Shown piece after piece: positions 17,709 to 58,549 of a DNA stretch of 64,000 bases. Each line of letters begins with the position of its first letter. Position 1 is the first letter of the stretch. This stretch comes from an uncultured Gemmatimonadales bacterium (lineage in GTDB: Bacteria; Gemmatimonadota; Gemmatimonadetes; Gemmatimonadales; GWC2-71-9). The position numbers were made by a program, and so were the translations under genes. The DNA lies in contig CAVZZO010000003.1 in assembly GCA_963779755.1 (NCBI GenBank), positions 1,536,001 to 1,600,000 on the forward strand, given 5' to 3'. Below the pieces are notes generated by a model, which ran no database searches, was not told the DNA's origin, and saw nothing but the letters and a program-made list of their open reading frames with translations.

Positions 17709-18224
17709 ATGCCAGCTCCGTTCCATCGGACCCGCAGCGGCCGGGACAGGTCGAGGCGTGATCCCCAGACCTACGCTATCATCGGAGCCGCCATGGAGGT
17801 GCACCGCGCCCTCGGGCTCGGCTTCCGGGAGGGGGTGTATCACGAGGCGCTTGCACGGGAGTTTACTCAGCGGCAGATCCCCTATGAGGGGGAAGTCCCC
17901 TTCACCATCGCATTCAAGGGCAAGCCGCTCCGAACCTCGTATCGGGCCGATTTCGTATGTTACGGGGAGGTCCTGGTCGAATTGAAGGCCCTTCGCGCCC
18001 TCACCGGCGTGGAATTGGCCCAGGTGTTGAACTACCTGCGCGCCAGCAGGCTCGAACGGGCGCTCCTGCTGAACTTCGGCGCCTCGAGCCTCGAGTACCG
18101 CCGCATAATTCTCTCCGCGGACTCATCTGCGCAATCTGTGGTCAAATCTGCGCAATCTGTGGTCAAATCTGCGCAATCTGTGGACTGGATTGCCCCTCCT
18201 GGGATCGAACCAGGACTCTCCTGA
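17709..18224 (+). CDS. GxxExxY protein (PD-(D/E)XK nuclease-like family)
   Basis: IIGAAMEVH--LG-GFREGVY, YRADFV, VLVELKA, AQVLNYL and LLLNFG. The C-terminus reads through a 21-bp repeat into the antisense tRNA. Start codon uncertain. Confidence 0.9.
   Translation: MPAPFHRTRSGRDRSRRDPQTYAIIGAAMEVHRALGLGFREGVYHEALAREFTQRQIPYEGEVPFTIAFKGKPLRTSYRADFVCYGEVLVELKALRALTGVELAQVLNYLRASRLERALLLNFGASSLEYRRIILSADSSAQSVVKSAQSVVKSAQSVDWIAPPGIEPGLS
18125..18183 (+). repeat. 21-bp tandem repeat x~3 (atctgcgcaatctgtggtcaa)
   Basis: Units start at 18125, 18146 and 18167, inverted relative to 17610-17627. Confidence 0.9.
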
Positions 18225-20689: not shown

Positions 20690-20776
20690 AGGAACGGGAA
20701 GAGGGAAGCGGGAAACGGGAAGAGGCGCCATCCTCTTCCCGTTTCCCGTTTCCCGTTTCCCGTTTCCCGTTTCCCG
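20690..20776. repeat. Inverted heptamer array (cgggaaa/tttcccg) between convergent genes, possible bidirectional terminator
   Basis: gggaagcgggaaacgggaagagg ... cctcttcccgtttcccgtttccc. Confidence 0.75.
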
Positions 20777-23641: not shown

Positions 23642-23736
23642 CAGGACAGGGAAACGGGAAAAGGGAAACGGAGAAAAGTACAGTTTCGCGTAAAAATGAT
23701 GCCACCATTTCCGCTGGCGCGTAGAATACTGGCTGC

Positions 23737-24099
23737 ATGAAGGATCATCGTTCTCTCAGGGCATGGCAGGAGGCTCGGCAGGTTTCGTTGCTGGCGCTGC
23801 ATCTGGCCCGCGATCACTGGAAGCCGTGGGCCTCGGCTCTGTTCTACCAACTCCAACGAGCCTCCCTGTCTGTTCAGCTGAACATTGCTGAAGGGGCCAC
23901 CTTCAACCGGTCACCCACCTACACCAGGCACCTGGGAATCGCCTACGGCTCCCTGGTCGAAACCAGGGAGATCATCGAATTAGCCGTCGACGCCGGGGTC
24001 ATTTCGCGTGCGTCCGCAGCAGGCATCCGGAGTCATCTCACCGAAGCGCAGCGCCTACTGATCGGCTTGCTCAAGAGACATCGCCCCATGCGTTCCTAG
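23737..24099 (+). CDS. Four-helix-bundle protein (23S rRNA IVP/Avd-like family)
   Basis: L-AWQ-A ... QL-RASLSV-LNIAEG ... L-IAYGSL-E. Confidence 0.88.
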   Translation: MKDHRSLRAWQEARQVSLLALHLARDHWKPWASALFYQLQRASLSVQLNIAEGATFNRSPTYTRHLGIAYGSLVETREIIELAVDAGVISRASAAGIRSHLTEAQRLLIGLLKRHRPMRS

Positions 24100-24258
24100 G
24101 ATCGCCTTGCCGCTTCCCGGTTCCCTTTTCCCTATTCCCCCATCTCCCACTCCCTACCCGGTATCCCGGTTTCGGTTCCCCCGGCTTGACCTCCCCGCCC
24201 CGGGGCCCTACCGTGCAATTGTAGGGGAAATGACGACACGAGCGGCCTGGAGGTGCGC

Positions 24259-29367: not shown

Positions 29368-31259
29368 TCCACTGCCGGATCCTGGGGCCGGCACTGGTCA
29401 CGGTAGACGGCCACCCGGCTCCGCCCGAGCTGTTGTGGCGCAAGAACCTGGCGCTCCTCATCTACCTGGCCCGGGCGCCCCGTCGCAGCCACACCCGTGA
29501 GCACCTGACCGGACTGCTCTGGCACGACAAACCGGAAGCGGCGGCGCGACACTCGCTCAACGAGGCGGTCCGGGTGCTCCGGCGCATCGGCGGCACCGAT
29601 ACGGTGCTGAGCGACGGGGGACAGGTAAGCCTGGCGGCCGATGCGGTCCGGCTGGATACGGAAGAGCTGGCGGAGCAGCTCGCCGGCGGCAACCTCGCCG
29701 CCGCGGCGCTCGTGGCCGGCAGCTTCCTGGAAGGCTTCTCCATTCCCGGCGCCACGGCGTTCGAGGACTGGCTGGCCGCCGAGCGGGAGCAGTGGCGCCG
29801 CACCGGCGTGCAGGCGCTCGCCGGCCTGGCGGAACAGCAACTGGCGGGCGGACACCCGCATGCGGCGGTCGAGTCCGCCGAGCGCGCGCTGCGGCTGGAC
29901 CCGGCCTCGGGAGTCGCCCTGCGAGCGCTGCTCCGCGCGCTGGCCCTGGCGGGCGATCCGGGCGCGGCGCTGGCCCGCTACACCGCCTACACTGCCTATC
30001 TGGACCAGGAGTTCGGCGGGGATCCCGATGGCGAGACCCAGGCGCTGGCGCGGAGGCTGCGCCGTCCGGTGCGGTGGGGAGCGGCGGCACCGGCCTGGAC
30101 CGCCGGGCCGGCCCGGCGGCCGCCGCTGTCCGGCCGGGAGGCTGAGCTCGGCCGCCTGCTGCACCTGTGGAATGAAGCACGTGCCGGCCCCGCCCGCCTG
30201 GCGCTGGTCAGCGCGGATTCGGGCATGGGCAAGAGCCGCCTGGTGGAGGAACTGCTGCTGCGGACCCGGCTCGAGAGCGGTGCCGTGCTGCAGACCCGCG
30301 CGGTGCCCAGCGATGAATCGGAACCCTGCGGGCGGCTTCTGGACCTGGCGCGCGGCGAACTGCTGGACCTGCCGGGGATTGCCGCGGCTCCCCCCGCCGC
30401 CATTTGTGCCCTGGCCGAACGCATACCGGAATGGCAGGAACGCTTCCCCGGCGCGGCGGCGGCCGGGGCGCTTCCGCCCGTAACCCACGCGGTTGCCGAT
30501 GTGCTGCGTGCCGCGCTGGAGGAGAGTCCCGCCGTGCTGGCCATCGACGATGCCCAGTGGGCGGACGGGCCAACGCTGGAGGCGGTGGGTGCGCTGCTGC
30601 GCGATCTGCGCGCGCATCCGCTCCTGGTGGTCCTGAGCTTCGCACCCCGTCCCGCGCGCCCCGAGCTGGATGGCCTGCAGAGCCGCCTGGGGCGCGAGAC
30701 CCCGGGCGACACGGTCCATCCCGGACCCCTGCAGGAGGACGCGTTGCGGGAACTGGCCCGGTGGTGGCTGCCCTCCTACGATGAGGAGGCGCTCCATCGC
30801 ATCACCCGGCGGGTCGCGGCGGATTCCGCCGGCACGCCCCTGCTGGCGGCCGAACTGTTCCGGGCCGTGGCCTCGGGCCTGGACCTCGACCGCGAGTCGC
30901 CCGCATGGCCCGCCCCCTTCCGCACCATGGACCAGACCCGTCCCGGCGACCTGCCGGCGGCCATCGTCGCCGCGATCCGCATCGCCTTTCGCCGGCTCTC
31001 GGCCGCGGCGCAACACGTGCTCACGGCCGCCGCGGTGCTGGACGACCGGGTGACCGAGGCGCAACTGGCCGCCGCGACGGGGCTGGGCTCTCCCACGCTG
31101 CGGCAGGCCCTGGACGAGCTGGAATGGAGCCGGTGGCTGGCGGCCGACCCGCGAGGCTACACCTTCGTCGCCAGGCTGGTGCGGGAAGTAGTGGGGGACG
31201 ATATGGTGACGCGGGGAGAGCGGGAGAGGATACGGACAGCGGTGAGCGGTGAGCGGTGA
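29364..31259 (+). CDS. SARP/BTAD-AAA ATPase transcriptional regulator
   Basis: ILGP, LL-YLA, RE-L-GLLW, FEDWL--ERE, GREAEL, GMGKSRL and IDDAQWAD. GTG start overlaps the kinase stop. Confidence 0.88.
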   Translation: MIHCRILGPALVTVDGHPAPPELLWRKNLALLIYLARAPRRSHTREHLTGLLWHDKPEAAARHSLNEAVRVLRRIGGTDTVLSDGGQVSLAADAVRLDTEELAEQLAGGNLAAAALVAGSFLEGFSIPGATAFEDWLAAEREQWRRTGVQALAGLAEQQLAGGHPHAAVESAERALRLDPASGVALRALLRALALAGDPGAALARYTAYTAYLDQEFGGDPDGETQALARRLRRPVRWGAAAPAWTAGPARRPPLSGREAELGRLLHLWNEARAGPARLALVSADSGMGKSRLVEELLLRTRLESGAVLQTRAVPSDESEPCGRLLDLARGELLDLPGIAAAPPAAICALAERIPEWQERFPGAAAAGALPPVTHAVADVLRAALEESPAVLAIDDAQWADGPTLEAVGALLRDLRAHPLLVVLSFAPRPARPELDGLQSRLGRETPGDTVHPGPLQEDALRELARWWLPSYDEEALHRITRRVAADSAGTPLLAAELFRAVASGLDLDRESPAWPAPFRTMDQTRPGDLPAAIVAAIRIAFRRLSAAAQHVLTAAAVLDDRVTEAQLAAATGLGSPTLRQALDELEWSRWLAADPRGYTFVARLVREVVGDDMVTRGERERIRTAVSGER

Positions 31260-31320
31260 GCGGTCCGGGCCGGCAACCGGTAGCGCGTGCCCGCTCACCG
31301 CTCACCGCTCACCGCTCACC
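31240..31320. repeat. Inverted heptamer arrays (gcggtga)n / (tcaccgc)n between convergent genes
   Basis: About three units on the left pair with about four units on the right. Confidence 0.85.
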
Positions 31321-33787: not shown

Positions 33788-34771
33788 ATGGCCCCAAAGT
33801 CAAAGCCGCCCATTGCCGATAGCGCACCGCTCTTCCGCCGCCGGCTGCTGCGCTGGTTCCGCCGCCACGGCCGGGATCTGCCCTGGCGCCGCACCCGCGA
33901 TCCCTACCAGGTGCTGGTATCGGAGATCATGCTGCAACAGACCCAGGTAAGCCGGGTGCGCGACTTCTACCCCCGCTTCCTGGCCCAATACCCCAGCATC
34001 GAGATCCTGGCCGGCGCGAGCCCGCGCCAGGTGCGCGAGAGCTGGGAAGGGCTGGGCTACTACCGGCGGGCGGCCAACCTGCACCGGCTGGCGGGCGAGG
34101 TGGTGCGGGAGTGCGGCGGCACCCTGCCGCGTGAGGTGGACGAGCTGCGCCGCCTGCCCGGCATCGGCCGGTACACGGCGGGGGCGGTGGCCTGCTTCGC
34201 CTATGAGCTGGCCGAGCCCGCGGTGGACACCAACGTGGCCCGGGTGCTCCGCCGCGCCTTCCATCCCCGGCTACGCGCCCGGGGCGCCGAGCGGCGCCTG
34301 TGGGACACCGCCCGCCGCCTGCTCCCGCGCAAAGGCCCCCCGGCCTGGGCCTTCAACCAGGCGCTCATGGAGTTGGGGGCGGTGATCTGTACGGCGCGGA
34401 AGCCGGCATGCGAGAGGTGCCCGGTGGCGGGGGTATGCAAGACTGGGAAACGGGAAAAGGGAACGGGTCTAAACAGGGAAACGGCGCTGATCAATTCCCC
34501 TTTCCCGTTTCCCGTTCCCCTTTCCCCTTTCCCCTTTCCCGTTTCCCGTTTCCCGTTTCCCGTTTCCCGTTTCCCGTTTCCCGTTTCCCGTTTCCCGTTT
34601 CCCGCGCTCACCGCGTATATCGCATCATCACTCCCGCCAGCAAGGCCAATAGCGCGAGGGTGCCGGCAATGGAGGAGAAGACCCGCTGCCGCACGCGCAG
34701 GGCGTCGAACACCGCGGCGGCGGGACCGGTGGGGTCGATCCGGGCCAGCCGGGCCGACGTGGGCACGGTAA
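33788..34771 (+). CDS. mutY: A/G-specific adenine glycosylase (short MutY lacking the C-terminal domain); homology ends near 34445
   Basis: RDLPWR, VSEIMLQQTQV, WEGLGYY-RA, LPGIGRYTA, VDTNV-RV, NQALMELGA and a C-x6-C-x2-C-x5-C cluster. The ORF tail runs through a repeat. Confidence 0.88.
   Translation: MAPKSKPPIADSAPLFRRRLLRWFRRHGRDLPWRRTRDPYQVLVSEIMLQQTQVSRVRDFYPRFLAQYPSIEILAGASPRQVRESWEGLGYYRRAANLHRLAGEVVRECGGTLPREVDELRRLPGIGRYTAGAVACFAYELAEPAVDTNVARVLRRAFHPRLRARGAERRLWDTARRLLPRKGPPAWAFNQALMELGAVICTARKPACERCPVAGVCKTGKREKGTGLNRETALINSPFPFPVPLSPFPFPVSRFPFPVSRFPFPVSRFPFPALTAYIASSLPPARPIARGCRQWRRRPAAARAGRRTPRRRDRWGRSGPAGPTWAR
34445..34604. repeat. Inverted (cgggaaa)/(tttcccg)n heptamer array
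   Basis: About 15 tttcccg-like units at 34495-34604 face gggaaacgggaaaaggg at 34445. Confidence 0.9.
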
Positions 34772-46246: not shown

Positions 46247-48049
46247 TTAGTAATCCACCGGCCTCAGATAGTACTCTCCGATCGCCGTCTGGCTCAGCAT
46301 CGCCACCGTGGGCAGGCGCCGTTTCCAGTGGGTGGATTCCAGGCGTTTACGCACCAGTGCCACCTCGGCTTCGCTGTAGCCCAGCCGGGTGACCTCCTCC
46401 GGGGTATAGCCCTGGAGCAGCAGGTGGAGGATGTGGTCGGCTTTGGGGTAGGAGATGCCCAGGTCGCCCTCGTCGGTCTGGCCGTGAATCAGGTCGGCGC
46501 TGGCGGGCTTGTCCACGATCACCTCCGGCACGCCCACGTGCCGGGCCAGCGCCCAGACCTGGCTCTTGAAGAGATCGCCGATGGGATTGACCGGCGGCGA
46601 GTCGTCGGCGTGCCAGGTGAAATAGCCGAAGAGCCGCTCCGTCTTGTTGCCGGTGCCCAGCGGCAGCGCCTTCCGGGCAGCCGAGAGATCGAACAGCACG
46701 ATCATCCGGGTGCGGGCCATCACGTTGCCCCGGCGGGTATCGTCGCTGCCGCCCACCGCCTCGACCAGCCCGTCCACCGCCGCACTGATCTCCACCGTGC
46801 ATCCCTCGATGCCGAGCTGGTCGATCACCAGCTGCGCATGGCTCATGCTCTCGGGACTGCTGGTACGATAGGGCATCCGCACGCCGATCACGTTCTCCGC
46901 CCCCAGGGCTTCGGCCGCCAGGAAGGCCACCAGGCTGCTGTCCACGCCGCCCGAGAGGCCGACGATTGCCTTGTCGAACCCGCGCCGCCGCGGCAGCTCG
47001 TCGCGGATGAACTCCACCAGCCAGCGGCGGGTGAGGGCGGGGTCGATGGCGAGGGGATCGGACAGACGGTCGGGCGGACGGGCGGACGGGCGGTCGGCTG
47101 ATTTATTCCGGGGCGACGCATTGGGAGGTGCAGAGGCTATCTGGCCGTTCTCGGAAACGCCCTCACCGGCCGCCTGTCCGCCCGACCGCCCGACCGCCTG
47201 CAGCAGCCCCGGCAGCTTCACTTCCAGGTCCGACAGGAGCGGCGAATCGGCCCGGGCGCGGGTGATGTCGTCCAGATCGATGGTGACCGGCTCGAGCGCG
47301 CTCTGGAACAGCGGCAGCTCGGCCAGCAATTCGCCCCGGGGGTTCACCAGAATGGACCCGCCGGCAAAGCCCTTGCCGCCCTCGAAGCCCACCAGCTGCA
47401 CCAGCGCCACGAAGACGCCGTGCTCCTCCGCGATCCCTTTGGCCAGTCGTTCCCAGCGCTGGAGATTATCGGGCCGGCCCCGCGCCTCCGGGCTGATGCC
47501 GCGGCCCGGTGTGGCGCTGGGGATGATGATCATCTGGGCGCCGTCGAGCGCGGCCAGGGTGGCAGTGAGCGAATGCCAGGCATCCTCGCAGATCAGCATC
47601 GCGGCTCGGCCCCAGCGGGTGTCGAACGCCTGAACCGAGCGGCCCGGCTCAACGAACCGCTCCTCGTCGAACACTCCGTAGGTGGGGAGAAATACCTTGC
47701 GGTGGATATGCCGGATTCCGGCCTGGTCGCCCCCCAGCGTGGCGTAGAGCGAAGAATTGTGGAGCCGGTTCTGCCACACTTCGTAGAACCCGATCGCGAT
47801 ATCCAGCGGCGGCCCGGCGGCCTCGCCGTGGACCCGGCTCAGATCCTGGTAGAACTCCTCGGCGGGAAGCGCCAGCTCGCGCACGCCACCCTCGAGGAAA
47901 TACCCGGTGAGGGCCGACTCGGGCGCCAGCAGCAGGTCGGGGGCCTCGGGCCAGCCGGCCACCTCGCGGAAGACCGCGCCGAGTTGCGCCAGGTTATCGC
48001 GGTAGGCAGCCTTCCGGGGATGGAGCTGCGCGAGGGCAAGGCGGAGCAT
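46247..48049 (-). CDS. nadE: Glutamine-dependent NAD+ synthetase (nitrilase domain plus synthetase domain)
   Basis: PE---GY, K--LPTYGVFDE-R, ICED-W, GLSGGVDSS, GN-MAR-RM, GTGNKTE and PASADL--GQTDE. Confidence 0.93.
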   Translation of the reverse strand: MLRLALAQLHPRKAAYRDNLAQLGAVFREVAGWPEAPDLLLAPESALTGYFLEGGVRELALPAEEFYQDLSRVHGEAAGPPLDIAIGFYEVWQNRLHNSSLYATLGGDQAGIRHIHRKVFLPTYGVFDEERFVEPGRSVQAFDTRWGRAAMLICEDAWHSLTATLAALDGAQMIIIPSATPGRGISPEARGRPDNLQRWERLAKGIAEEHGVFVALVQLVGFEGGKGFAGGSILVNPRGELLAELPLFQSALEPVTIDLDDITRARADSPLLSDLEVKLPGLLQAVGRSGGQAAGEGVSENGQIASAPPNASPRNKSADRPSARPPDRLSDPLAIDPALTRRWLVEFIRDELPRRRGFDKAIVGLSGGVDSSLVAFLAAEALGAENVIGVRMPYRTSSPESMSHAQLVIDQLGIEGCTVEISAAVDGLVEAVGGSDDTRRGNVMARTRMIVLFDLSAARKALPLGTGNKTERLFGYFTWHADDSPPVNPIGDLFKSQVWALARHVGVPEVIVDKPASADLIHGQTDEGDLGISYPKADHILHLLLQGYTPEEVTRLGYSEAEVALVRKRLESTHWKRRLPTVAMLSQTAIGEYYLRPVDY

Positions 48050-48080
48050 GGGGGAAGTATAAGGCGGGAAGGGCAGTAAG

Positions 48081-48150
48081 GGCGGTACGGCGGGACGGCG
48101 GGACGGCGGGACGGCGGGACGGCGGGACGGCGGGACGGCGGGACGGCGGT
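48081..48150 (+). repeat. Octamer array (ggcgggac)x7 plus variants
   Basis: Perfect units at 48089-48144; inverted partner (taccgccg)n at 48576-48606. Confidence 0.92.
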
Positions 48151-48162
48151 GGCTGTCAATGG

Positions 48163-48528
48163 TCAAGAGGATTTCGCAACCGACCGGTAGAGTCTCCAGG
48201 TCAGTTGGCCGGCACGATTCCGCAATTCATTGAGCTGTTCCCACTGCTTCACCTCGAGGTACCCGAGATCCCGGGCAAGACGAAGACAATAAGACAACTC
48301 GGACAGCGAACCGAGGGCGATATCCAGGTACCTGCGAAATTCCCGCGGGCCTTTCTTGGCACAGCCCTCGGCGATGTTCATCGGAGCAGAGAATGCGGCA
48401 CGGCGTGTCTGCGAAACCAGCCCGTAGAGCTCCGCCTTGGGCCATGTCCGGGTAGCCCCATAGACGGCCAGCGTGAGTTGGTGATTTACCTTCCAGGCTT
48501 CGAAGCGCTCGTAGGGTAGCATGGGCAT
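48163..48528 (-). CDS. Four-helix-bundle protein (23S rRNA IVP/Avd-like family)
   Basis: AWK--H-L---VY--T--WP--ELYGL-SQ-RRAA-S--MNIAEG ... F-RYL-IA-GSLSE. Confidence 0.93.
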   Translation of the reverse strand: MPMLPYERFEAWKVNHQLTLAVYGATRTWPKAELYGLVSQTRRAAFSAPMNIAEGCAKKGPREFRRYLDIALGSLSELSYCLRLARDLGYLEVKQWEQLNELRNRAGQLTWRLYRSVAKSS

Positions 48529-48617
48529 AACGTATCTCAGGTAAGGCTCAACCCAGCGTCAAATAGCCGGAGAACTACCGCCGTACCGCCATACCGCCGT
48601 ACCGCCTATTTTACGTC

Positions 48618-48986
48618 ATGCTCTGGTACATCGGCTTGGGCAGCGCGCTGGGGGGGATGGGCCGCTACCTGCTGAGCGGGCTGGTGCAGCGGGCCGGCGG
48701 GGCCGGGTTTCCCTCGGGCACTCTGGTGGTCAACATCCTCGGGTCGTTTCTCCTGGGGCTGTTGTTGCGGTACAGCCTGAGCGCTCCCATGGGGCCGAAC
48801 ATGCGCGCGGCGCTCACAGCCGGCTTCTGCGGCGGGTTCACCACCTTCTCCACCTTCAGCTACGAGACGGTGGAGCTGCTGCAGGACGGGCAGTGGGCCA
48901 AGGCGGGGACGTATGTCGGGCTGAGCCTGCTGGTGGGCCTGGCGGCGGTGTGGGCCGGGTTCCTGGTGGCGAGGGAGCTGGCGTGA
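48618..48986 (+). CDS. crcB: Fluoride channel Fluc/CrcB
   Basis: G-ALG---RY, FP-GTL-VN-LGSF and GFCGGFTTFSTF--E. Confidence 0.95.
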   Translation: MLWYIGLGSALGGMGRYLLSGLVQRAGGAGFPSGTLVVNILGSFLLGLLLRYSLSAPMGPNMRAALTAGFCGGFTTFSTFSYETVELLQDGQWAKAGTYVGLSLLVGLAAVWAGFLVARELA

Positions 48987-48987
48987 T

Positions 48988-49092
48988 GGTGAGCGGTGAG
49001 CGGTGAGCGGTGAGCGGTGAGCGGTGAGCGGTGAGCGGTGAGCGGTGAGCGGTGAGCGGTGAGCGGTGAGCGGTGAGCGGTGAGCGGTGAGC
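48988..49092 (+). repeat. Heptamer array (ggtgagc)x15
   Basis: 105-bp perfect array; inverted partner (ctcaccg)x~4 at 49546-49573. Confidence 0.95.
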
Positions 49093-49100
49093 GAATGTCG

Positions 49101-49451
49101 TTATTTCCAGCGATGGATCAATCCCAGAAGGAGCCGCTGGCTTCGGCGACACCGGTCCAGTAGCGGCAGGACCATCGCTTCCGGGACCAGTGACGCGTCG
49201 GACAGGAGTGGCAGCACATCGCCAGTTTCTATGGCTGAACCGTACGCGATTCGGAGATGGCGCCGGCAGGTCGGGCTCCTCATGAAGGCATAGCCCTCGG
49301 CGAGATTGAGCTGTACCGATAGAGAACTCCGCAGCCCCTGATCAAACAGGGGCCGTGCGAACGGCCTGGTATAGTTCCGGCTGAGCCCCAGCATTCCGAG
49401 AACGACGGCTCGGGCTTCCTGCCAGGCAACCAGCGAGGTATGGTCGCGCAT
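49101..49451 (-). CDS. Four-helix-bundle protein (23S rRNA IVP/Avd-like family)
   Basis: L-AWQEA ... Q-LRSSLSVQLNLAEG ... L-IAYGSA-E. Clear paralogue of 23737..24099. Confidence 0.88.
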   Translation of the reverse strand: MRDHTSLVAWQEARAVVLGMLGLSRNYTRPFARPLFDQGLRSSLSVQLNLAEGYAFMRSPTCRRHLRIAYGSAIETGDVLPLLSDASLVPEAMVLPLLDRCRRSQRLLLGLIHRWK

Positions 49452-49583
49452 GAAGCAGGATACGGGAGCGACGGAAACCAGTCGTCATCCAGTAAGCGCG
49501 ATGAGGCACGCCGTTTCGCGCGACGGGCGGCTCTCGGCTTTCCCCCTCACCGCTCACCGCTCACCTCTCACCGTCTCTTGCCC

Positions 49584-49943
49584 ATGCACGGCCTGACCGG
49601 CGAACGCGTCCTCATGCGCATCCACATCGGCGAGAACGACCGCGCCGGTGGGAAGCCGCTCTACGAGGCGATCGTAAACCTGCTGCGGCAGCGCGGCTTC
49701 GCGGGTGCCACCGTCTTCCGCGGCATCATGGGCTTCGGCGCAACCGCCCGGCTGCATACCGAGAAGGTCCTCCGCCTCTCCCTCGACCTGCCGCTGGTCA
49801 TCGAGTGCGTGGACACCCAGGAGAAGATCGACCAGATTCTCCCGGAGCTCGACGGCATGATCGGCGGCGGCCTGATCACGCTCGAACGGGCCCACGTGAT
49901 CATCTACCGGGGAGACAATGCCCAGGGGACAAAGGAGAAGTAG
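49584..49943 (+). CDS. DUF190 (PII-like) protein
   Basis: RI-IGE-D---GKPLYEAIV, GATV-RG--GFG and LSLDLP-VIE-VD. Confidence 0.92.
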   Translation: MHGLTGERVLMRIHIGENDRAGGKPLYEAIVNLLRQRGFAGATVFRGIMGFGATARLHTEKVLRLSLDLPLVIECVDTQEKIDQILPELDGMIGGGLITLERAHVIIYRGDNAQGTKEK

Positions 49944-49995
49944 TTACTTTCCACCCCGTTCCCGTTTCCCTCTTCCACGACTCCCTTTTCTCCAC

Positions 49996-50460
49996 ATGTC
50001 CTCACCTCTGTTCTCCTCGCTCGCCGGCGTCCCCAATCTTTCGGAGCTCGAGCCCACCCTGCTGGTGGGCGGCCAGCCCTCCGCCGACCACCTGCGCGCC
50101 TTCCGGGAGGCCGGCGGGGCGATCGTTCTGGACATCCGCGACCCGATGGAACCGCGGCCCATGGAGGATGAGCGCGAGCTGGTGGAATCGCTGGGTATGC
50201 GCTACGAGAACATCCCGGTCTCCGGCGGTGTGGACGACGCGCTGCTGGAACGGATTCTCACCGTGATCCGCTCGGCCGGAGAGCAGTCGCTGCTCTTCCA
50301 CTGCAACAGCGGCAACCGCTGCGGCGCGGCCGTCATCGCCCACTGCATGCTGGACCTGAACATGGACGAAGAGGCAGCGGTCACCGAGGCGATGCGCAGC
50401 GGGCTGCGCAGCCCGGAAATCCTCCAGTGGGGACTGACGTACGTCGAGAGCCACCGCTGA
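49996..50460 (+). CDS. Phosphatase-like / sulfur-transferase domain protein (CX5R, DUF442-like)
   Basis: GGQPS, V-D-R, GMRY--IPV and HCNSGNR. Confidence 0.8.
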   Translation: MSSPLFSSLAGVPNLSELEPTLLVGGQPSADHLRAFREAGGAIVLDIRDPMEPRPMEDERELVESLGMRYENIPVSGGVDDALLERILTVIRSAGEQSLLFHCNSGNRCGAAVIAHCMLDLNMDEEAAVTEAMRSGLRSPEILQWGLTYVESHR

Positions 50461-50473
50461 CCACTCGCGACCT

Positions 50474-50554
50474 CTCGACCCTCTCGACCCTCTCGACCCT
50501 CTCGACCCTCTCGACCCTCTCGACCCCCTCGACCCCCTCGACCCCCTCGACCCT
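50474..50554 (+). repeat. Nonamer array (ctcgaccct/ctcgacccc)x~9
   Basis: Intergenic tandem repeat. Confidence 0.9.
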
Positions 50555-50679
50555 GCTATACAACTGACACGAGCAGTGTGCCATAAGATCCTGCGACGCC
50601 TCACCCCGCCATCCTTGCACGCCTGAAACCTCACGGCACTCGCGGCCGTCCGTCGCGTGTCCCCACGACGGAGCCGCCC

Positions 50680-52560
50680 GTGATCCCCCGTGTCTCCAGC
50701 GGCCTTCTGGCGGCCGCCCTGCTCGCCGCCTGCCAGTCCGCTCCCGGCGGACAACCCGCTATCCCGGTTGCCATGTTCCGGGGCGATGCCGCCCACAGCG
50801 GGAATTATCCCGGCAGTAGCGATACTTCGTTCGGTGGGCTCCTCTGGCGGGTGCAGACGGGCGGAGCGGTGCATTCGACACCCGTCATGGCGGCGGGCAT
50901 GGTCTACGCCGGCAGCGGCGATCACTACCTCTACGCCATCGATGCCGCCAACGGCGTGGTGCGGTGGCGCTACCGCGCGGCCGGGGCAATCCAGTCTTCG
51001 CCCGCGGTCGCCCGCGGCACGGTCTTCTTCGTGGATCGCGCCGACACCCTCTACGCGCTGGACGCGCACGACGGCACCCGGCGGTGGGCGCGCGGCTTCG
51101 GCCACCCGCTGCCGCTTCCCTGGGGCCACGAGAGCGGCGACCGCTACACCTCGAGCCCGGCGGTCTACGGTACCGATCTCCTGGTGGGCGGCCGCGACGG
51201 CGGACTCTACCGGATCCGGGCCGGCGACGGCCACGTGGTCTGGCGCTACCAGGCCGACGGGCAGATCTGGGACTCTCCCGCCGTGCGCGATTCGCTGGTG
51301 TACGCCGGGGCGACCGACGGGGTGGTCTACGGCGTCAGCCTGGCCGATGGAAAACAGCGCTGGCGCTTCGGCACCCTGGGCCAGACCCTGGGCTCCGACA
51401 CCTTCGGGTTCGACCGCCGCACCGTACAGTCCTCACCCGCCGTCTCCGACTCCACCGTCTTTATCGGCGCACGCGACGGCTTCCTCTACGCCCTGAACCG
51501 CCTCACCGGCGCGCCGCGCTGGCACTACGACCACGACGTCTCCTGGGTCAACACCTCTCCCGCGCTGGCCGGCGGGCTGGTCTTCGACGGCAGTTCCGAC
51601 GGCCGCTTTGTTCAGGCGGTCGACGCCGTCACCGGGGAGGAACGGTGGCGCGACACCACCGACGGCATCGTCTGGTCGTCACCCGCCGTGGCGGAGAACA
51701 TCGTCTTCGCAGGAGACGGCGCCGGGAACCTCCTGGCCCTGGACCGGGCCACCGGGAGGCAGCGTTGGCGCTACCGCGCGGGCGGGGGGATTTACTCCTC
51801 GCCGGTCCCCGGCCCCGGAATGCTCTGCTTCGGCAGTGTGGACGGCGCGATTTACGCCGTACGCCTGCGGAGCGGGCCGGCACTGGACCGCGCGGTCTTC
51901 TGGGACAGTACCGTGGTGCACGGCGGGTGGTTCGCCCAGCACGCCACGGTGCGGGACTTTCTGGCGGGGCAGGATTACCGGCAGCTCGACAGCCGCGGCC
52001 TCATCGGCTTTCTCCAAGCCCACAGCGCCGATGGTGTTCCCAGTGTCGTGGTCTTCGCGCTGGACTACCTCCCGCCCGAGGCCGCGGCCGGCGACAGCCT
52101 GTCCCTGTTCCGGCGCTACCTCGAGGCCGGCGGGAAAGTGGTCTGGCTGGGGGTGCCGCCGCTGCTCTTCCCCCGCGATCCCGCCAGCGGCCGCACCGAT
52201 CTGAGCCGCATCGACCGCTCCGGGCCCGCCCGGCTGCTGGGCGTGACGCACCAGGGCGGGAACTTCGATCCGGTCAGCGCCTCGCCCACCGACGCGGCCC
52301 GGCGCTGGGGCATCGAGGACTGGTGGATCAGCAACTGGTCGGCCGACCCGCAGTCGGTGAGCACCGTGCTGGCGCGCGATGAAATGGGCTTGGCGGCGGC
52401 CTGGGTGAAATCCTACGGCGGGCCCCCGGGAACCGGGTTCGTGCGTCTCTACGGGGGCCAGTGGCAGGGCGGCATGTCGCGGGCGCAGCTGCTGACGGTG
52501 CAGGCGGCGGCGGAGTATATGCCGAGGGGCAAGAAGGAAGAAGTGAGAAGTAAGAAGTAA
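50680..52560 (+). CDS. PQQ-like beta-propeller lipoprotein
   Basis: Lipobox LAAC and repeated SSPAV...G--DG--YA-D--TG--RW blades. Confidence 0.9.
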   Translation: MIPRVSSGLLAAALLAACQSAPGGQPAIPVAMFRGDAAHSGNYPGSSDTSFGGLLWRVQTGGAVHSTPVMAAGMVYAGSGDHYLYAIDAANGVVRWRYRAAGAIQSSPAVARGTVFFVDRADTLYALDAHDGTRRWARGFGHPLPLPWGHESGDRYTSSPAVYGTDLLVGGRDGGLYRIRAGDGHVVWRYQADGQIWDSPAVRDSLVYAGATDGVVYGVSLADGKQRWRFGTLGQTLGSDTFGFDRRTVQSSPAVSDSTVFIGARDGFLYALNRLTGAPRWHYDHDVSWVNTSPALAGGLVFDGSSDGRFVQAVDAVTGEERWRDTTDGIVWSSPAVAENIVFAGDGAGNLLALDRATGRQRWRYRAGGGIYSSPVPGPGMLCFGSVDGAIYAVRLRSGPALDRAVFWDSTVVHGGWFAQHATVRDFLAGQDYRQLDSRGLIGFLQAHSADGVPSVVVFALDYLPPEAAAGDSLSLFRRYLEAGGKVVWLGVPPLLFPRDPASGRTDLSRIDRSGPARLLGVTHQGGNFDPVSASPTDAARRWGIEDWWISNWSADPQSVSTVLARDEMGLAAAWVKSYGGPPGTGFVRLYGGQWQGGMSRAQLLTVQAAAEYMPRGKKEEVRSKK

Positions 52561-52657
52561 GGGGTAAGGGGTAAGGCGTCCCGCTCCACCTCTTACTTCT
52601 TACTTCTTACTCCTTACTTCTTACTTCTCACGTCTCACGCCTCACGCCTTACGCCTT
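52531..52657. repeat. Inverted heptamer arrays (agaagta)/(tacttct) and (tcacgcc) between convergent genes
   Basis: gaagtgagaagtaagaagtaag ... cttacttcttacttcttac. Confidence 0.85.
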
Positions 52658-58417: not shown

Positions 58418-58549
58418 GGTCAGACATGCCTGAGGAGTGGTCAGACATGCCTGAGGAGTGGTCAGACATGCCTGAGGAGTGGTCAGACATGCCTGAGGAG
58501 TGGTCAGACATGCCTGAGGAGTGGTCAGGCATGCCTGACCACTCCTCAG
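58418..58549. repeat. 21-bp tandem repeat x5 ending in a perfect 36-bp palindrome
   Basis: (ggtcagacatgcctgaggagt)x5; palindrome at 58514-58549. Confidence 0.95.

Follow-up and report, generated by a model that had tools for sequence, protein, structure and literature searches.

An intervening-sequence-type cassette with inverted heptamer arms in the crcB-DUF190 spacer of a Gemmatimonadales genome

We analyzed a 64,000-nucleotide stretch of DNA from an uncultured Gemmatimonadales bacterium (hereafter the window), focusing on the short spacer between the fluoride channel gene crcB and the DUF190 gene that follows it, both of them genes of fluoride resistance. This spacer contains a small antisense gene of the S23p (PF05635) four-helix-bundle family, here called IVP, enclosed by two arrays of tandem heptamers that are inverted with respect to each other. 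At the level of sequence, our comparisons show that the insert is an intervening sequence (IVS)-type cassette lying outside ribosomal RNA (rRNA), antisense in a short operon spacer. They also show, on the same basis, that this gene evolves together with its arms as a single unit, which is met repeatedly across bacteria.

To describe the locus, we combined a list of open reading frames (ORFs), Tandem Repeats Finder (TRF) and Pfam and NCBIfam models applied to the window, and read positions 48300-50300 directly. The crcB gene (48618..48986, + strand, 122 aa; PF02537 E 2.6e-31, TIGR00494 E 1e-29) is followed, with its first base 1 nt past the stop codon, by a long arm of (GGTGAGC)x15.1 (48988..49093; TRF period 7, 100% match, score 212). 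The IVP gene, IVP2 (49101..49451, - strand, 116 aa), comes next, antisense to the operon. A 94-nt spacer on the - strand (49452..49545) separates its start codon from the short arm; it may hold a promoter or leader and is poorly conserved in related cassettes. The short arm itself, (CTCACCG)x4.0, measures 28 nt (49546..49573; TRF, 90% match) and is the reverse complement of the long arm's unit. The DUF190 gene (49584..49943, + strand, 119 aa; PF02641 E 4e-39) has its start codon 10 nt beyond it. The long arm is G-rich on the + strand; from the - strand it is a C-rich (GCTCACC)n array downstream of IVP2. A first-pass annotation of the window had described this order as crcB, (ggtgagc)x15, an antisense gene, about four ctcaccg units and DUF190, and the layout was borne out base for base. 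At 48975-48990, crcB ends in '...ARELA' with its TGA abutting the first GGTGAGC unit, and the protein of a relative (L007) continues as '...RELLVLRRG'. The insertion may have replaced the last crcB codons, and the GGTGAGC unit contains TGA itself.

IVP2 matches PF05635, '23S rRNA-intervening sequence protein' (E 8.2e-14; 52.2 bits, cut-off 33.8), and TIGR02436, 'four helix bundle protein' (50.4 bits, cut-off 24). We aligned IVP2 with 11 relatives and searched the PDB with the profile of these 12 sequences. The profile matched 2GSC, a solved Xanthomonas protein (E 6.3e-38), and 2RLD (E 2.7e-12), and gave no match at E <= 0.001 to Avd, the accessory protein of diversity-generating retroelements (DGRs). 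The invariant columns of the alignment, in IVP2 numbering, are W10, Q38, N49, E52-G53, R64, G71-S72 and E75. The DGR Avd model NF033474 did not match IVP2 and gave only 17 bits (cut-off 80) with IVP1, another of the three IVP copies in the window (IVP1-IVP3). The reverse transcriptase domain RVT_1 was not found in the source genome of the window. Because IVP2 matches PF05635 and 2GSC, has no match to NF033474 and lies in a genome without an RVT_1 match, it is an S23p-type protein and not a DGR component. Of the first-pass label 'IVP/Avd-like', the assignment to the IVP family was confirmed by PF05635 and TIGR02436, and the likeness to Avd held at the superfamily level only. Avd shares a distantly related four-helix-bundle fold, and the accessible text of PMC10053308 describes PF05635 as the Pfam model by which Avd-like proteins are detected.

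The PDB entry of the closest solved homologue, 2GSC, contains 5 chains, and the accessible text of PMC4990558 describes this protein as a toroidal homopentamer, so IVP2 might likewise form a homopentameric ring. The G+C content at third codon positions (GC3) is 0.70 in IVP2 and 0.66-0.77 in all 8 full-length IVP genes of the source genome, with a genome median of 0.86 for called ORFs. Such an atypical codon composition is as would be expected for foreign or weakly expressed genes.

To assess whether the insertion is derived, we compared the locus with genomes of the same order (41 counting the source genome and the unpublished genome G014), a set without any genome of the same genus. The tallies of genomes with DUF190, PF05635 and RNase III include G014, and no claim depends on it. 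DUF190 was found in 20 of the 41 genomes. For 18 out of 21 DUF190 loci of relatives, crcB lies immediately upstream, the two tblastn hits being 14-126 nt apart with no IVP gene between them; at two of the other three no crcB was seen, and the last has crcB elsewhere. Among 80 metagenomic DUF190 loci (59-84% identity), crcB lies upstream in the same orientation in 72, none of which has an IVP gene between the two. These counts agree with the first-pass statement that crcB and DUF190 are commonly adjacent, and they answer its proposal to look for an empty site in relatives. Since the pair is contiguous in relatives and the site is empty, IVP2 and its arms are a derived insertion, which cannot be dated more closely because no same-genus genome is in the set.

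Related structures occur at and near the same site. In one relative (G009), a gene-less hairpin made of (GATTGCG)x4.6, 39 nt and (CAATCCG)x4.6 sits precisely in the interval that separates the crcB stop from the DUF190 start, and in one metagenomic contig a solo (GGTGAGA)x3.6 array starts immediately after the crcB stop. The closest relative of IVP2 (64% identity, in G007) is located 2 kb away, after nadE, between arms of (GGTAAGA)x5.3 and (CCTCTCA)x8.1. These arms belong to the same unit family as those of the crcB-DUF190 cassette, and in G007 a gene-less hairpin of that family directly follows DUF190. Altogether, IVP cassettes within ~2.5 kb of nadE-crcB-DUF190 were seen in three genera (window 48081-49573; L134 of G007; L135 of G009), at different intergenic sites. 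Their positions suggest that this neighbourhood is a local hot spot or that cassettes hop locally. As to the first-pass term 'mobile cassette', mobility is suggested only by the cross-genus comparison, and no recent copies were noted.

The insert resembles the IVS in the 23S rRNA of Coxiella burnetii, as described in the accessible text of Warrier et al. 2016 (PMC4990558). There, terminal inverted repeats make up a 28-bp stem, two or three tandem GACAGAT heptamers and a degenerate one lie directly before the S23p start codon, the number of heptamers varies between strains, and RNase III cuts at the first repeat. The Coxiella IVS is regarded as a selfish element, and S23p-bearing IVSs are also reported for Leptospira, Xanthomonas and Brucella. 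Both the Coxiella IVS and the crcB-DUF190 insert have an S23p-family ORF in the loop, tandem heptamers beside it and complementary termini as an enclosing stem, and the 28 bp of the Coxiella stem equal four heptamers, the size of our short arm. This match gives the crcB-DUF190 insert the design of a genuine IVS, outside rRNA. The two also differ. Our cassette does not lie in helix 25 or 45 of 23S rRNA but between protein-coding genes and in antisense, its arms are pure arrays of unequal length (15 vs 4 units), and it resides in a genome with hundreds of gene-less arrays and in a lineage without detectable RNase III. The models TIGR02191, PF14622 and PF00636 found no RNase III in the source genome, although controls responded, and tblastn with the RNase III of a relative gave a best E of 0.12. 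Among 40 relatives RNase III was found once, in a genome with 3% contamination and there on a contig of 1.5 kb. The whole order may be without a canonical RNase III, and one may ask how rRNA precursors are processed in it.

We then asked how general the association of IVP genes with inverted arrays is. A gene was counted as bracketed when 7-9 nt arrays lie on both sides, inverted at <=2 mismatches per unit in the order and cross-phylum sets and roughly inverted in the source genome set. The source genome has 9 matches to PF05635, of which 8 are full-length, and 7 of these 8 are bracketed, as compared to 21 of 3114 other ORFs (Fisher p 1.7e-14; the ORFs were called with a crude GC3-based caller of our own, so 3114 is approximate). 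This excludes chance as the cause of IVP bracketing. In the order, PF05635 was found in 34 of 41 genomes. We fetched 30 IVP loci and analyzed 29, leaving out the one from G014 (L047); 23 of the 29 are bracketed and one further locus is cut by a contig end. The unit varies among loci. Between the end of the upstream arm and the domain start there are 64-178 nt, and the distance from the domain end to the beginning of the downstream arm is -4 to +86 nt.

For a cross-phylum scan, we used a 4-protein alignment as the query with one genome per species, and took the best 80 of at least 600 matches, among which one phylum dominates. These loci come from Bacteroidota (most of them), Planctomycetota, Acidobacteriota, Chloroflexota, Nitrospirota, Clostridia, Desulfobacterota, Methanophagales and a Peribacteria metagenome-assembled genome (MAG). 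For the 76 evaluable loci, an upstream array was found in 44, a downstream array in 52 and both in 32, and array density is 3.0/kb next to the gene vs 0.35/kb at >400 nt. The two arrays are inverted in 24 of the 32 pairs (24 of the 76 loci), as against 11% of permuted pairs, and bracketing spans different units and G+C contents. The first-pass annotation had treated the arrays as special to the crcB-DUF190 site. They are instead a feature of the whole genome, in which we counted 731 such arrays (see below), and of the whole family (23 of 29 loci in the order, 24 of 76 across phyla).

Two further regularities characterize the cassettes. The G-rich arm comes first in 17 cassettes vs 1 in the order and in 19 vs 1 across phyla. 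In addition, the similarity of the units tracks that of the IVP proteins: at 82% identity the unit is identical, and in the 64%-identical G007 orthologue it is one mismatch away. Because units are more alike where the proteins are more alike, the arms travel with the gene. Within the source genome, the closest IVP paralogue pair noted has 68% protein identity (6 of the 8 own genes were compared). We also considered other gene families as cargo of inverted arrays and rejected them, as the other 21 ORFs with bracketing arrays proved to be ordinary host genes of every size, and their matches are loose. Same-unit pairs with long spacing likewise enclose ordinary genes, for instance a Tag-like glycosylase and a HAD hydrolase.

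Arrays of this kind are abundant in the source genome (4.23 Mb, 68% G+C, 4 contigs, 97% complete). It contains 731 non-redundant period-7/8 arrays of >=2.8 copies, of which 404 lie fully outside called ORFs, though these account for 80% of the DNA. Only periods 7 and 8 have long arrays. In 64 pairs of neighbouring arrays the two members are inverted copies of a single unit, and 57 of these pairs, with spacers of 6-154 nt, are gene-less hairpins (in the window, for instance, at 20696-20776, 31238-31320, 34445-34604 and 52531-52628). The hairpins are found whether the neighbouring genes are co-directional, convergent or divergent, and they often take up the spacer so fully that only a few bases are left before the coding sequences. 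However the flanking genes are oriented, 54 of 57 hairpins have the G-rich arm first and the reverse order was never seen, the other 3 being mixed. As the repeats are inverted, this polarity holds on both strands. Some hairpin loops are themselves terminator-like hairpins. We considered whether the gene-less hairpins could be deletion derivatives of IVP cassettes and ruled this out, because the 36 loops compared have no similarity to cassettes.

What the arms do is a separate question. The explanation we favour, although we hold it with no more than even confidence, is that of a selfish cassette whose arms would neutralise its insertion. Read-through RNA from crcB would carry the G-rich arm first and then the complementary C-rich arm. 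The two would pair into a stem of ~28 bp and loop out the 450-nt insert, bringing the DUF190 start next to the crcB stop and masking the C-rich arm. An IVP mRNA begun inside the cassette would instead carry only the unpaired C-rich, G-poor array of 105 nt downstream of IVP2, which could be a good loading site for Rho. With Rho loaded there, we propose that the IVP transcript would end before it runs antisense into crcB. Such insulation would place the G-rich arm first on both strands, whatever the orientation of the gene, and arm neutralisation is the only explanation at hand that predicts this polarity. Cleavage of the stem is improbable in this lineage, given that no RNase III was found; in organisms with that enzyme, and in rRNA, the stem would be a cleavage site.

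Part of this scheme is consistent with folding predictions. When positions 48975-49600 were folded as RNA, the minimum free energy (MFE) structures joined the two arrays on both strands, at -291 and -271 kcal/mol (z -2.9 and -2.5 vs 20 shuffles), and the base pairs of the short arm with the long arm had an ensemble probability of 0.96 on either strand. The source genome also has two Rho-like genes (C3:1022191-1023429, 689 bits over the cut-off; C1:137485-138597, 468 bits). The pairing that the first-pass annotation had envisaged is thus predicted for either strand; selection of the stem in one RNA strand is not supported by the comparison that follows.

Several observations weigh against arm neutralisation, and we list them together. 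Of 57 cassettes compared, 26 have the more stable arm duplex in the IVP sense strand and 22 have it in the antisense strand (p 0.67), and for gene-less hairpins the strand that folds better is not tied to that of the flanking genes. As the mismatches have no strand preference, they give no positive sign of selection at the RNA level, and a process acting on DNA would preserve arm complementarity just as well. Of the long arm's units, 11 are in excess of what can pair. No GGAGG-type ribosome-binding site is visible in the sequence before the DUF190 start, and with none beside the stem the insert may in fact harm DUF190 expression. A sigma-70 promoter scan of 48000-50100 found nothing, including for IVP2, and no conserved promoter-like block was seen when the 5' spacers of five related cassettes were aligned. 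The Rho step is our own inference. Finally, a search of sequencing runs returned no RNA run with window sequence, and two DNA runs with 5-6% of words. In the strand comparisons above, G-U vs A-C asymmetry served as the pointer to a functional RNA strand and gave no signal.

The explanations discussed below are not exclusive of arm neutralisation. The first is that the cassette is a foldback-type element acting at the DNA level. Its arms would be terminal inverted repeats or portable homology, and cassettes would move or copy into arrays of like unit by recombination within the arms. The gene-less hairpins would be landing pads or footprints, and the IVP protein might assist. Foldback elements of Drosophila have long inverted arms of short tandem repeats, unequal in length, and most copies have no coding loop while a few have genes. 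The equal complementarity of our arms on both strands fits this explanation, as do the empty hairpin of G009 and the solo (GGTGAGA)x3.6 array, both at the same site. The G007 orthologue after nadE, with its GGTAAGA/TGAGAGG-type arms and the empty hairpin of that family after DUF190, and the different intergenic sites used by cassettes around nadE-crcB-DUF190 in three genera fit as well. Moreover, same-unit arrays are clustered in the source genome, with 67 pairs within 5 kb vs 43.7 +/- 7.0 in permutations. Of the features expected of elements like miniature inverted-repeat transposable elements (MITEs), inverted terminal arms are present. Many copies with shared internal sequence, another such feature, are missing, as a comparison of the loops of 36 hairpins showed no relation to IVP cassettes and, one pair apart, none among the loops themselves. 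The cassette contains no transposase or recombinase, the array boundaries are fuzzy, and the strict G-first polarity is not explained by this model alone. No recent copies were seen either, as the 68% identity of the closest paralogue pair illustrates. The Drosophila elements are eukaryotic, and ours differ from them in having no transposase and unrelated loops. We regard a foldback-type element as possible, though on balance we would not expect it.

A second alternative is that the arrays are binding sites of IVP rings made of five subunits, each of which would contact one unit in the manner of TRAP. The IVP gene would be autoregulated at its own 5' array, and the other arrays of the genome would be its regulon. 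The five chains of 2GSC and the toroidal homopentamer described in the accessible text of PMC4990558 are consistent with this idea. The arrays flanking IVP genes mostly have 3-6 units, in the cross-phylum set a median of ~44 nt separates the end of the upstream array from the beginning of the protein match, and the units co-vary with protein similarity. Array density points in the same direction. We sampled 16-120 kb per genome and found 0-8.5 arrays/100 kb in 7 IVP-negative genomes (19 arrays in 558 kb) and 0-37 arrays/100 kb in 18 IVP-positive genomes (89 in 1031 kb). With the source genome included, density correlates with IVP (Spearman rho 0.47, p 0.017; phylogeny not accounted for), and values of >=11 arrays/100 kb occur in 9 of 19 IVP-positive and 0 of 7 IVP-negative genomes. 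We note that this comparison is small, ignores kinship and includes a sample (G024) that is biased toward IVP contigs. Furthermore, three genomes with 4-8 IVP genes (G031, G027 and G010) have very few arrays, and genome-wide copy numbers fall monotonically (219, 127, 72, 31, 23...) with no peak near 5 units. The need for a complementary second arm also stays unexplained, and overall we consider binding sites unlikely.

We think it very unlikely that the insert is an intervening sequence in the strict sense, which a double-strand-specific RNase would cut out of the crcB-DUF190 mRNA at the paired arrays. The architecture is that of the RNase III-excised Coxiella IVS and the stem is strongly predicted. 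However, RNase III was found neither in the source genome (by three models and tblastn) nor in 39 of 40 relatives, which makes excision by this enzyme improbable, and a cut would separate DUF190 from the promoter-proximal mRNA. The first-pass suggestion that the insert behaves as an intervening sequence is therefore supported as to design, through the match with the Coxiella 23S IVS, and weakened as to excision. That an IVP gene came to lie between two arrays by coincidence, short tandem repeats being common in intergenic DNA (404 of 731 arrays are fully intergenic, filling spacers up to coding boundaries), is scarcely credible in view of the 7/8 vs 21/3114 bracketing (p 1.7e-14), its recurrence with other units and other G+C contents, both within the order and across phyla, and an arm complementarity far above that of permuted pairs.

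The window contains further elements of the same kind. Upstream of crcB, a second cassette consists of an arm of (GGCGGGAC)x8.6 between nadE and crcB (48081..48149, TRF), IVP1 (48163..48528, - strand, 121 aa, four-helix-bundle; PF05635 E 4.5e-30, TIGR02436 E 7e-29) and the other arm, (TACCGCCG)x3.9 (48576..48606, TRF), which ends 11 nt 5' of the crcB start. This cassette wholly fills the divergent nadE-crcB spacer, so the crcB promoter must lie inside or across it; in relatives the spacer measures ~80 nt from hit to hit in G017, and the tblastn hits abut in G024. A third cassette on the + strand (23649..24139; TRF and family match) has the order (GGGAAAC)x3.9, IVP3 (23737-24099; 50% identical to IVP2) and (TTCCCTA)x2.7. 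The gene-less hairpin at 31238..31320, with (AGCGGTG)x3.9, a 26-nt loop and (CCGCTCA)x4.3 (TRF), belongs to the unit family of the crcB-DUF190 arms. The ORF list for 48081-49573 has no transposase-like ORF. Rfam found no fluoride riboswitch upstream of crcB (48529-48617) at E <= 1; its sole match in 47500-50600 at that threshold is a weak Flavi_TBFV_SL6 (50078-50117; 19.1 bits, gathering score 38.3), outside the cassette. Other repeats in the window include (GACCCTCTC)x10.7 at 50459-50554, just 3' of a phosphatase-like gene, and two with 21-nt units, x5.8 with 99% match (58418-58538) and x2.8 (18125-18183).

Cyanobacterial short tandemly repeated repetitive (STRR) sequences are abundant intergenic heptamer repeats. 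Comparable repeats appear in the accessible texts of MacGregor 2015 (PMC4679880), where TAACTGA repeats are abundant and intergenic in Beggiatoaceae, cyanobacteria and Bacteroidetes, and of PMC2700814, on heptanucleotide elements of Geobacter. All these repeats share with ours tandem 7-nt units in 2-6 or more copies, an intergenic location that often abuts start codons, and many families per genome. In those accessible texts, TAACTGA and Geobacter repeats are mostly direct arrays, whereas here we find inverted pairs with fixed polarity that bracket one gene family. The terms 'four helix' and '23S' do not occur in the accessible text of PMC4679880. At one cross-phylum locus, the IVP gene of an unclassified MAG (L110:1447-1891) lies between (AGTAATC)x4.7 and (AACTGAT)x4.6; the first unit is one mismatch from the complement of TAACTGA and the second is a rotation of TAACTGA.

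The protein family, the IVS and intergenic heptamer repeats were each known separately. Our literature search, which did not extend to subscription journals or to old scans such as the 1993 Leptospira IVS paper, found the IVP family linked with flanking repeats in the Coxiella paper only. Within the same coverage, we found no description of an IVS-type cassette inside a protein-coding operon, of the bracketing of the IVP family by inverted 7-9 nt arrays across phyla, of fixed arm polarity, or of such abundance in an order with no detectable RNase III.

We tentatively raise a broader reading, which we consider doubtful. S23p/PF05635 genes with inverted heptamer or octamer arms could be pan-prokaryotic foldback-type selfish cassettes, of which the 23S IVS would be the special case resident in rRNA. 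The cassettes, or a unit-binding ring protein, would then be the source or the reader of the intergenic heptamer repeats of cyanobacteria, Beggiatoaceae, Geobacter and others. If this were true, the G-first polarity would come from the making of the arms (repeat addition to 3' ends at a break) or from selection by Rho.

In 30 years, to our knowledge, no function has been assigned to the ORF of the 23S IVS, and nearly all studies of it concern copies within rRNA. Our results indicate that an IVP gene keeps a repeat-built stem wherever it is placed. This holds within operons, for both orientations, across many phyla and for a lineage with no detectable RNase III. Genomes rich in IVP genes also tend to be rich in gene-less heptamer arrays. 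These observations raise the questions of the role of the stem when it is not an RNase III site, of the ligand of the protein and of the origin of the excess of heptamer repeats in prokaryotes. Inverted arrays may also explain why IVP genes score as repeat-array-linked in CRISPR screens; '23S rRNA IVP' is listed in a figure legend in the accessible part of PMC10910872. For genome annotation, inverted 7-8 nt arrays can be used as a flag for IVP cassettes.

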